Positions 26,890-29,584 of a stretch of DNA of 64,000 nucleotides are shown here, piece after piece; positions within the stretch are counted from its first letter, which is position 1; every line of letters starts with the position of its first letter. A program made the position numbers and the translations under genes. Under the pieces are notes generated by a model that was not told the DNA's origin, made no database searches, and saw only the letters and a list, made by a program, of their open reading frames with translations. Origin of the DNA: Nitrospirota bacterium (lineage in GTDB: Bacteria; Nitrospirota; Thermodesulfovibrionia; Thermodesulfovibrionales; Dissulfurispiraceae); NCBI GenBank assembly GCA_963790025.1, contig CAWBMP010000002.1, positions 448,001 to 512,000 on the forward strand. Reading direction: 5' to 3'.

Positions 26890-28083
26890 ATGGAATTACT
26901 CGATTTCTCTCACATTTCGAAAACTTGTGGATACCTATCACAATATATCCATAAAACTCCGCTGGTCTACTCCAATTCATTCAGTGAAATGTTCGGTGCG
27001 GAGATATACCTTAAATCCGAGAACCTTCAAAAAACAGGCTCTTTCAAGGTCCGGGGGGCATTCAGCAAACTGTCCGGCCTGAATCCTGAAACAAGGGTCA
27101 TTGCTGCTTCGATGGGCAACCACGCTCAGGGGGTAGCATTTGCAGCCAGGCGCCTCGGCATGAAGGCGACAATTATTATGCCATTGCAGGCTTCCCTGAT
27201 AAAGCAGGAGGCGACAAAAGGGTACGGTGCGGAAGTTGTTTTATATGGTGAATCCTTTACAGACGCTCTCAATTATGCACTCTCGCTGAAACAGTATACG
27301 TTCATTCACGCTTTCGATGATGATGCGGTCATAGCCGGCCAGGGCACTGTAGGTATAGAGGTGCTGCATGATCTGCCCGATGCCGATGCCGTGGTTGTTC
27401 CGGTAGGGGGCGGCGGCCTCATTGCAGGTATGGCCATTGCCATAAAATCACTCTCACCCCGCACCGAAGTAATAGGTGTTCAGACTCTCTCTGCATCTTC
27501 TGCGTTCGAGTCATTCCACTCAGGAAAACTTATCGAAGTCCCGATTCAACCGACACTTGCAGATGGCATATCGGTGGGGAAAGTGGGGACCAGGACCTTT
27601 GGGATAATAAAAAAAAATGTCGATGACATGCTTAAGGTAACGGAGGAATCGATTGCCCGGGCAGTCCTCCTATGCATGGAACGGAAGAAGCTTGTAGTTG
27701 AAGGCGCCGGTGCAGTCCCGCTTGCTGCCCTGCTTGAGCACGGCGAACGTTTCAAAGGGAAGAAAATAGTCCTTATGATGAGCGGCGGCAATATCGACTT
27801 CACCGTTATCGACCGCATAATTCACAAAAGCCTCATTTCCAGCGGCAGAATCGGGGTGCTTAAGGTCATTGTCGATGACATGCCGGGCAGGCTTCATCAG
27901 CTGACAGGAATCATCGCCCGACACGGCGGCAATATTCTCAATGTCGTGCATGACAGGCTGGTTCAGGATATTCCTGTCGGGAAAACGCTTGTCATACTGA
28001 CACTTGAGGCAAGGGGTTTCGATCATATCAGAGAGATGACCACTGCAATCAGCGAGGCCGGGTTCAGCCTTTATTCCACATAG
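26890..28083 (+). CDS. ilvA: Threonine ammonia-lyase with C-terminal ACT domain
   Basis: ENLQKTGSFKVRGA PLP lysine, ASMGNHAQG, VPVGGGGL, SGGNID and an ACT domain. Confidence 0.93.
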   Translation: MELLDFSHISKTCGYLSQYIHKTPLVYSNSFSEMFGAEIYLKSENLQKTGSFKVRGAFSKLSGLNPETRVIAASMGNHAQGVAFAARRLGMKATIIMPLQASLIKQEATKGYGAEVVLYGESFTDALNYALSLKQYTFIHAFDDDAVIAGQGTVGIEVLHDLPDADAVVVPVGGGGLIAGMAIAIKSLSPRTEVIGVQTLSASSAFESFHSGKLIEVPIQPTLADGISVGKVGTRTFGIIKKNVDDMLKVTEESIARAVLLCMERKKLVVEGAGAVPLAALLEHGERFKGKKIVLMMSGGNIDFTVIDRIIHKSLISSGRIGVLKVIVDDMPGRLHQLTGIIARHGGNILNVVHDRLVQDIPVGKTLVILTLEARGFDHIREMTTAISEAGFSLYST

Positions 28084-28142
28084 ATAATTTTAAAATCACG
28101 AGTAACCGGACGCGAGGAAGAAACGTGGTTCAGCAACAAAAT

Positions 28143-28179
28143 AAAAAGATCGGGATAAGTATTAACTTATCCCGATCTT
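28143..28179 (-). terminator. 15-bp-stem hairpin terminator between ilvA and the Cys-repeat gene
   Basis: AAGATCGGGATAAGT-ATTA-ACTTATCCCGATCTT with a T-run on the minus strand. Confidence 0.8.
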
Positions 28180-28258
28180 CCCAAAAATCAAGCTGTTACC
28201 CGGAATATCCTTTCTTAGTTATAGATGTTGGAATTAATTCGTTTCTCTTACTATGACG

Positions 28259-28633
28259 TCATTTAACGGTTTCTTTGCTTTTGTCTTTACTGCCTGCTCC
28301 GCACTTGCAGTCCTTTCCGCAATGCCCGCACTTGCAGTTCTTGCCGTCTGCTCCGCACTTGCAGTCTTTTCCACAATGCTCACACTTGCAGCCCTTGCCG
28401 GCTGCTCCGCACTTGCAGTCCTTTCCGCAATGCCCGCACTTGCAGTTCTTGCCGTCTGCTCCGCACTTGCAGTCTTTTCCGCAATGCTCACACTTGCAGC
28501 CCTTGCTGTCTGTTCCCGATTTTAACTGTTTCGCATTGTCGTCAGCAGCGGATACATCCGTTAGTAAGGAAAAAGCACCTCCAAAAAAGAGCAGGCTTGC
28601 CATCAGGAAAATAACGCCCAATTTCTTTAACAT
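28259..28633 (-). CDS. Exported Cys-rich tandem-repeat (metallothionein-like) protein
   Basis: AGGAGG SD, then signal-like MLKKLGVIFLMASLLFFGGAFSLLTDVSA, then 4 x CKCxHCGKDCKCG (20 Cys, 4 His); downstream terminator. Confidence 0.8.
   Translation of the reverse strand: MLKKLGVIFLMASLLFFGGAFSLLTDVSAADDNAKQLKSGTDSKGCKCEHCGKDCKCGADGKNCKCGHCGKDCKCGAAGKGCKCEHCGKDCKCGADGKNCKCGHCGKDCKCGAGSKDKSKETVK
28294..28506. repeat. Intragenic tandem repeat: four 54-bp units in an A-B-A-B (108-bp) pattern with a 27-bp sub-period
   Basis: CACTTGCAG recurs every 27 bp; units 1 and 3, and units 2 and 4, are nearly identical. Confidence 0.9.
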
Positions 28634-28750
28634 TCCTTCCTCCTTGCATGTAATCATTTTTGTACTTGAATATTAGCATAATTCTGAGACCCACTACCAG
28701 ACCCACTACCGGATGTTGACAACACTTTTTATCTGTGTTAAATAAAAAGC

Positions 28751-29584
28751 ATGTGGGAATATACTAAAAAAGTTAAAGATTATTTCCTCCATCCGAAAAA
28801 TGTCGGAGAGATAGAAAACCCCGATGCAGTGGGAGAGGTGGGCAGCATCATATGCGGCGATGCCCTCAAACTCACGCTTAAGGTGGACAAAGATACCGGC
28901 AGGATTGTCGATGCCAAATTCCAGACCTTTGGTTGTGCTTCTGCGATAGCAAGTTCATCAGCGCTCACCGAACTGGTTAAAGGCAAGACGCTCGACGAGG
29001 CGCTCAAACTTTCCAACAAGGATATAGCGGATTTTCTAGGCGGCTTGCCCGACGAAAAAATGCACTGTTCTGTAATGGGAAAGGAAGCGCTCGAAGCGGC
29101 CATTGCCGACTACAGGGGTGAAGCCCCTGTCCGTGAAGCGGGAGAGAGGGTCGTCTGCAAGTGTTTTGACGTGACCGAGGATAAGATCAGGAAGGTAGCA
29201 ATGGAGAACCATCTTGCTACGGTTGAGGAGATTACCAATTACACAAAAGCGGGAGGCGGATGCGGCACCTGCACCCCCGATATAGAAGCTATCCTCAGGG
29301 ACATATGGGCGTTGAAACCTCTACCTGAGATGCCCAAAGAAACCAGGAAGCTGACCAATCTCCAGAGGATTGCGCTTATCCAGGACATTATCGAACGGGA
29401 AATACGGCCGCGACTGCAGGCGGACAACGGGGATATAGAGCTTATCGATGTCGATGGCCCAAAAGTAATCGTTGCCCTGCGGGCGATGTGTGTCGGATGC
29501 CCTATGGGCGGGGTTACCGTTAAGGGGATAGAGGAAAAATTACGGGAACTCGTCAGCAGTGATATTGCAGTGGAGGCCCGATAG
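28751..29584 (+). CDS. nifU: Fe-S cluster scaffold NifU (three domains)
   Basis: CGD, FGCASAIASSS and KMHCS (IscU domain); VCKCF...GGGCGTC (2Fe-2S domain); DNGDIEL...CVGC (Nfu domain). Confidence 0.95.
   Translation: MWEYTKKVKDYFLHPKNVGEIENPDAVGEVGSIICGDALKLTLKVDKDTGRIVDAKFQTFGCASAIASSSALTELVKGKTLDEALKLSNKDIADFLGGLPDEKMHCSVMGKEALEAAIADYRGEAPVREAGERVVCKCFDVTEDKIRKVAMENHLATVEEITNYTKAGGGCGTCTPDIEAILRDIWALKPLPEMPKETRKLTNLQRIALIQDIIEREIRPRLQADNGDIELIDVDGPKVIVALRAMCVGCPMGGVTVKGIEEKLRELVSSDIAVEAR

Follow-up and report, generated by a model that had tools for sequence, protein, structure and literature searches.

A predicted exported, metallothionein-like cysteine-repeat protein of a Nitrospirota bacterium and its relatives fused to YtkA-like domains

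To our knowledge, the characterised bacterial metallothioneins are few and cytoplasmic. CxC triplets together with His are typical metal ligand sets, and SmtA/BmtA (PF02069) and MymT (NF052418) carry them in small chains of about 20% Cys with no hydrophobic core. The protein described here, P0001, is like them in each of these respects, and a metal-thiolate cluster is presumed to be common to all. However, P0001 is predicted to be exported by the Sec pathway, whereas SmtA/BmtA and MymT are cytoplasmic, and neither PF02069 nor NF052418 appears among the Pfam and NCBIfam matches of P0001 at E up to 10. PmtA of P. aeruginosa has been reported at the cell surface (PMC11237414). Csp1-type stores and bufferins are described as sequestering copper with cysteines outside the cytoplasm, as we propose for P0001. 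The Csps are folded, Cys-lined four-helix bundles, whereas P0001 is modelled, at low confidence, without a helix after residue 32 and has no Pfam match; bufferins require an MNIO enzyme, and none was found in the P0001 genome. Nothing of the P0001 kind was found in the literature on periplasmic or exported bacterial metallothioneins, including that on signal peptides and Nitrospirota.

Relatives of P0001 carry a second, fused domain whose closest known relatives are CrdA of Helicobacter pylori and YtkA (CtaK) of Bacillus subtilis, both of which handle copper outside the cytoplasm. CrdA is described as a copper-binding protein (PMC9182242), YtkA and the YtkA domain of YcnJ are said to aid CuA assembly in B. 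subtilis (PMC13344008, PMC12362106), and MbnH, a relative of MauG, is said to make the kynurenine that serves the copper protein MbnP as a ligand (PMC11951088). The CrdA/YtkA domain is not in P0001 itself, and the link runs only through the fusion in its relatives.

The P0001 gene lies in a 64,000-nucleotide stretch of Nitrospirota DNA, which we call the window; its features are collected in the table. The start codon is the ATG at 28633, with an AAGGAGG Shine-Dalgarno sequence 5 nt upstream. A longer reading of the same frame, of 132 aa from an ATG at 28657, was rejected: we prefer the 124-aa start because it alone has a Shine-Dalgarno sequence and because the relatives begin with MLKK. Read by eye, residues 1-29 are of Sec type, with MLKK, a hydrophobic stretch of ~20 residues and VSA/A at the cleavage site, and the start of this signal peptide aligns with those of the relatives; the same reading of the N-terminus found neither a lipobox Cys nor a twin-arginine motif. 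The only helix in the AlphaFold2 model spans residues 2-32, and the mature chain is modelled without secondary structure at a pLDDT of about 40-50. By composition count the 95 mature residues include K22, C20, G17, D10 and H4 and zero F, W or Y. Cys makes up 21% of them (20/95), in part as eight CKC triplets, and the mature chain is without a hydrophobic core. P0001 thus has the composition of the metallothionein class, being small, high in Cys arranged as CxC or CxxC and free of aromatic residues.

Features of the P0001 locus and related elements
Feature	Position	Strand	Remark
P0001 CDS, 124-aa exported Cys-repeat protein (predicted)	28259..28633	-	stop codon included; translation, ORF list
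P0001 predicted signal peptide, residues 1-29	28547..28633	-	MLKK, hydrophobic core, VSA/A; putative cleavage site
Shine-Dalgarno AAGGAGG	28639..28645	-	read from sequence
In-frame tandem array, four 18-aa CKCxHCGKDCKCGxxGKx units	28294..28516	-	Tandem Repeats Finder, unit comparison
Candidate extended -10 element TGCTAATAT	28670..28678	-	assigned by eye
Perfect 12-bp x 2 direct repeat AGACCCACTACC	28687..28710	.	-35 region of candidate promoter
Intrinsic-terminator-like hairpin + T-run	28142..28183	-	19 pairs, 75 nt past stop codon
MITE-like copies in G000	C2:232036-232243; C4:481644-481814; C4:832247-832415; C4:1674495-1674663		outside window

An earlier, sequence-only reading of this DNA had described a 124-aa ORF with a Shine-Dalgarno sequence, a 29-aa Sec signal peptide, a mature chain of 95 aa with 20 Cys, 4 His and no aromatic residues, a terminator of its own and a nested build of 27, 54 and 108 bp. 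Translation and the AAGGAGG motif confirm the ORF, the lone AlphaFold2 helix agrees with the signal peptide read by eye, the count of residues is exact, the hairpin and its T-run supply the terminator, and Tandem Repeats Finder recovers the nested periods. Over the array it reports a 27 bp period (7.6 copies, 73% matches), a 54 bp period (4.1 copies, 87% matches) and a 108 bp period (2.0 copies, 99% matches), all of them divisible by 3. Every unit holds 5 Cys and 1 His, so that the four together account for all 20 Cys and 4 His. The same reading had given the repeat as four CKCxHCGKDCKCG copies; the copy number stands, but the unit is better written as the 18 aa of the table and is unlike the 7-Cys unit of the relatives. 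Units 1 and 3 are one base apart, at a synonymous site. Between the older 54-bp units, 6-10 of the 54 bases have changed, yet not one of the 20 Cys and 4 His codons has been lost. A contig from a public run is identical to 28341-28478 within the array and may derive from the same sample; the contigs of this run, X1, span parts of the stretch only.

On the 5′ side, a consensus promoter scan listed no two-hexamer promoter on the minus strand of the spacer, where we assign the candidate extended -10 element. The 12-bp direct repeat may be a regulator site or what is left of the end of a mobile element. At least 4 copies of a MITE-like element, 169-208 bp long with ~32-bp terminal inverted repeats, are present in the P0001 genome (G000), and an exact-core search showed that the outermost 11 bases of the element recur at the end of the AGACCCACTACC repeat. 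This identity suggests that the repeat may be a scar left by a mobile element at the border of an inserted cassette, and the element accounts for at most those last 11 bases of the 12. On the 3′ side, P0001 is followed by its own terminator and then by a convergent ilvA-like gene. An Rfam scan of 27800-29200 returned sub-threshold chance matches only.

No already characterised family lays claim to P0001. Pfam and NCBIfam, searched at E up to 10, gave only sub-threshold, collagen-like composition matches, and a PDB sequence search gave chance zinc-finger matches and no relative. A word-indexed homologue search found nothing at E up to 0.01, and the ESM Atlas returned scores of 0.80-0.81 only, which is the level of a lead. 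HMMER with bias correction over 41 related genomes gave E values of 0.0089-0.098 against fusion proteins, phmmer against 1.8 billion proteins gave P0007 at 5e-9, and BLASTP gave 1e-21 (46% identity) against P0007 and, with compositional adjustment, 6e-14 against the N-terminal part of the fusion protein of G002, all statistics that rest on cysteine-biased repeats. P0007 was the only true relative among 13 of the 47 proteins listed by phmmer, the other 12 being Gly/Lys/Cys-biased repeats. A word-indexed search with P0007 returned itself and one further protein, of 109 aa, which has no signal peptide, lies on a 461-bp contig and was judged unrelated. The fusion proteins of G002 (same genus, 259 aa) and G037 (same order, 306 aa) consist of a signal peptide, CxCGKDCKCxHC repeats and a C-terminal YtkA-like domain, called as PF13115 at E 1e-14 to 1e-15.

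P0007, an exported protein of a public assembly, is the only clear stand-alone form found other than P0001. The signal peptides of the two are near alike (SLLLFGGSFAL against SLLFFGGAFSL), and they differ in that P0007, at 107 aa, retains the 7-Cys unit of the relatives (CQCGPDCKCEHCGAGKPCHCAKH) whereas P0001 has a 5-Cys unit. Allowing up to 2 mismatches, the P0001 motif order occurs in this genome only among 317 genomes of the order, and P0001 is the sole gene of its kind in its own genome. Judged by sequence, P0001 is a species-specific, stand-alone variant of a Nitrospirota Cys-repeat family. It is an atypical and putative member, and the surrounding family is the more interesting object.

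To delimit this family we used a 36-base degenerate pattern for CxCGxDCKCxHC, with a chance expectation of ~0.07 in 596 billion bases if base frequencies are equal. We found 9 loci in a one-genome-per-species collection, all in records titled as Nitrospirota/Nitrospirae, Nitrospiraceae or Thermodesulfovibrio MAGs, and 47 metagenome loci, for a family total of 56. The proteins are labelled 'hypothetical protein' in the database, and all their matches to metallothionein models are below threshold. Twelve further ORFs are truncated at contig ends; among the 44 complete ones, the order is signal peptide, Cys repeats, YtkA in 34, signal peptide, YtkA, Cys repeats in 8 and Cys repeats only in 2, placing a YtkA-like domain in 42/44. 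One of the Cys-only cases (L018) runs out of frame into a YtkA region and the other (L037) lies 252 bp from its contig end. In the main form the number of Cys is a multiple of seven (14, 21, 28, 35, 42). In four sets of proteins the flanks are identical (45/45 N-terminal and 118-120/120 C-terminal residues) while the Cys number is 14, 28 or 42 and the blocks of 54-56 residues number one, two or three. Even very close strains thus differ in repeat number, and the variation in copy number that had been anticipated from the P0001 sequence is borne out among its otherwise identical relatives.

P0001 has the homologous signal peptide and Cys-repeat region that mark members of this family. It shares the signal peptide start MLKK-GVI-L with the Cys-YtkA proteins (for example that of G002, L006:1033-1812, minus strand), the blocks GKDCKC and CKCxHC and the G/K linkers, and repeat number is variable in both. 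The differences are that the P0001 unit is of 18 aa with 5 Cys in the order CKCxHCGKDCKC, whereas that of the family is of ~27 aa with 7 Cys as CxCGxDCKCxHC; that P0001, unlike the family, has no PF13115 domain; and that it sits at another locus without the downstream MauG/MbnH-like gene that usually accompanies the family. The Cys-YtkA gene is whole in G002, G006 and G008, split in G004 and absent from the P0001 genome. The first 30 coding bases of P0001 and a AATTATnCnAAT stretch upstream of it resemble the 5′ ends of same-genus Cys-YtkA genes, which are also preceded by a AATTATnCnAAT-like stretch, and this likeness is a weak hint that the P0001 gene may derive from the 5′ portion of such a gene.

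We searched the family loci by tblastn with the MauG-like protein of the P0001 genome. Of the 28 Cys-YtkA loci that offer at least 400 bp of downstream sequence, all but L021 and L055 (26/28) have a homologue of 46-72% identity immediately after the Cys-YtkA gene on the same strand, and 2 loci with under 400 bp have it too. The same search found it in 0/11 YtkA-Cys loci. The gene matches CCP_MauG in Pfam, and it comes closest to the NCBIfam models for MauG and the MbnH family without reaching their cut-offs.

Several other arrangements were seen around these genes. The reversed, YtkA-Cys order occurs on metagenome contigs (L030, L032, L034, L047, L050, L057, L067, L070 and L071), with 2-5 C-terminal CxCGPDCKCEHCTTGKGPCACK units, and in no record of the one-genome-per-species scan; two ORFs neighbouring it in L032 are without an NCBIfam match. 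Frameshifted or split Cys-YtkA copies, with their parts in different frames, are found at L018:5710-6276 and G004:C6:177998-178781 and may be due to sequencing error in the repeats or to real decay. At L055:3529-5722 and L022:7453-8928, a response regulator of the OmpR type and a sensor kinase are divergent from the Cys-YtkA gene, and both fall below the cut-offs of the NCBIfam heavy-metal sensor families. Two small exported proteins, at L076:2971-3471 (G008) and L077:3064-3417 (G053), both on the minus strand, carry two copies of a different, six-Cys unit CxCGxxCxCGT...GxCxCG, have the opening CDCGKDCKCG of the motif in common and match no family.

The YtkA-like domain of the relatives is recognised by Pfam at E 1e-12 to 1e-15. 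In the AlphaFold2 model of one fusion protein it has a pLDDT above 90, against 35-50 for the Cys region, and Foldseek matches the model best to silver-bound H. pylori CrdA (E 1e-6, target TM 0.80, rmsd 2.1 Å). The domain has the invariant motifs MPEHGHG and SMxGWW and invariant M, H, H and M residues. Since the fusion occurs in both orders, we argue that the Cys repeats and the YtkA part work together. The proposal of copper as the metal of P0001 is drawn wholly from this partner domain of the relatives.

The P0001 genome itself has 5 YtkA-like matches, three of them in addition to a paralogous protein with two such domains, and one of these three is ahead of a TolC-like gene. The two-domain protein, of 278 aa, is encoded in the middle of an operon-like trio of genes at C3:72791-75812 of G000 (L010). 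Before it comes a Met/His-rich exported protein of 267 aa that matches no family, and after it a MauG/MbnH-like di-haem protein of 416 aa. Near the trio are a TonB-dependent receptor, ExbB/ExbD/TonB, an ABC transporter and a gene that by eye is NosL-like (CPVCGMF), and the region resembles an island for acquiring or handling copper.

On balance, and with modest confidence, we favour the reading that P0001 is exported by Sec and buffers soft metals, most likely Cu(I), in the periplasm in the manner of a metallothionein. The sequence-only reading had also proposed an exported metallothionein-like protein, and the composition, the signal peptide, the CrdA-like fusion of the relatives and the lack of a curated family argue for it indirectly. 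For P0001 we infer export and cleavage, reduced thiols, metal-driven folding and copper as the main metal. Cleavage between Ala29 and Ala30 would free a 95-residue Lys/Cys/Gly chain that would remain without a fold in the absence of metal; on binding, its 20 thiolates and 4 imidazoles would enclose metal ions in thiolate clusters, whose negative charge the 22 lysines would balance. P0001 would then be a free-standing, recently re-amplified Cys-repeat module that passes metal to, or takes it from, the separately encoded YtkA-like proteins of the genome, as suggested by the fusion of the module to a YtkA/CrdA-type domain in other Nitrospirota. A wider scheme, which we offer tentatively and regard as doubtful, is a so far undescribed Nitrospirota periplasmic copper system made of a length-variable 7-Cys sponge, a CrdA/YtkA Cu(I) site and a MauG/MbnH-like enzyme, in which P0001 would be the first free-standing sponge, tunable by copy number and acting in trans. 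The enzyme may modify the invariant GWW motif, by analogy to the kynurenine ligand that MbnH makes in MbnP, or may oxidise and release thiolate-bound metal.

Other explanations of P0001 draw on the same observations. It could be a non-functional or barely functional relic, in which the 5′ part of a Cys-YtkA gene was copied, the partner domain lost and the repeats expanded by slippage without selection. The exact form is species-specific, and a motif order found in one of 317 genomes means that conservation cannot vouch for function; moreover, the Cys-YtkA gene of its congeners G002, G006 and G008 is missing from the genome, split and frameshifted copies exist elsewhere (L018, G004), the coding start and upstream stretch are like those of same-genus Cys-YtkA genes, and the 108-bp duplication, with its one base difference, is too young to reveal selection. 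However, the start codon, Shine-Dalgarno sequence, signal peptide and terminator are intact, the repeat periods are all multiples of 3, the Cys and His codons have survived the 6-10 base differences per 54 and P0007 provides a second stand-alone form, so that we consider a relic unlikely. We hold it quite unlikely that the thiols serve a purpose other than metal buffering, such as linking an envelope or matrix by disulfides, carrying sulfide or polysulfide, buffering redox or nucleating metal sulfide particles outside the cell. An unstructured chain rich in Lys and Cys would suit such roles, and record titles and a run label place the organism's group in sediments and wetlands. A DsbA-like match is present, if weak (21.6 bits, or 38.8 bits with its neighbours in the frame), and makes it conceivable that the P0001 cysteines may be oxidised. 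Against this, neither DsbB nor VKOR was found in the 98.8%-complete genome, as would be expected if the thiols remain reduced, CxC triplets together with His form typical ligand sets for metals, and the fusion of the relatives to a Cu/Ag-type domain in both orders points to metal handling. Scarcely credible, in our judgement, is a bufferin-type RiPP precursor whose cysteines are made into heterocycles before copper binding. Bufferins are described as MNIO-made RiPPs that chelate excess copper (10.1101/2024.03.18.585515, PMC12452194), but the MNIO family PF05114 has no match in the 98.8%-complete genome, the NCBIfam bufferin models do not match P0001 at E up to 10 and the adjoining genes are ilvA-like and nifU.

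The sequence-only reading had further proposed that P0001 may be coupled to NifU and NifS, for Fe-S assembly or repair under metal stress, through a shared 117-bp promoter region. The genes are divergent and the spacer of 117 bp between the P0001 ATG and the nifU ATG (28751) is indeed common to both, but the nifU promoter sits by its own ATG. In the same-genus genome G007, nifU follows ilvA after 148 bp, compared to 667 bp here, and the two have no Cys gene between them. The extra DNA here consists of the terminator, the Cys gene and its upstream region; neither the terminator hairpin nor the 12-bp direct repeat is in the G007 spacer. The nifU promoter, TTGACA (28716-28721), a 17-base spacer and TAAATA (28739-28744), is conserved in G007. 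It is placed outside the inserted cassette, no more than about 35 bp from the nifU ATG. With the gene missing from the G007 spacer and the nifU promoter conserved, P0001 is, on comparative grounds, probably a lineage-specific insertion of a self-contained cassette of promoter, gene and terminator. A Cys gene upstream of nifU was seen in none of the 5 same-genus genomes examined, and in G001, G002, G004 and G006 a response regulator is upstream of nifU. The synteny with nifUS that would have been expected does not appear in the relatives either, whose Cys-repeat genes lie beside MauG/MbnH-like genes. In addition, P0001 is predicted to be exported, whereas the NifU and NifS translations have no signal peptide. 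We therefore think functional coupling very unlikely, and the adjacency to nifU-nifS looks accidental and without functional meaning. The nifU promoter ends 6 bases before the ATG, which suggests that the nifU mRNA may be leaderless or nearly so; the TGTTGACAACA core is palindromic.

If the metal-buffer reading of P0001 and its relatives is true, anaerobic sediment bacteria would hold a periplasmic cysteine-thiolate store of metal whose capacity shifts through simple gain and loss of repeats and which is connected to a domain of the copper chaperone type and to a MauG-like enzyme. The family would then offer a testable model of metal buffering in reducing envelopes and a compact, exported and tunable metal-binding module.
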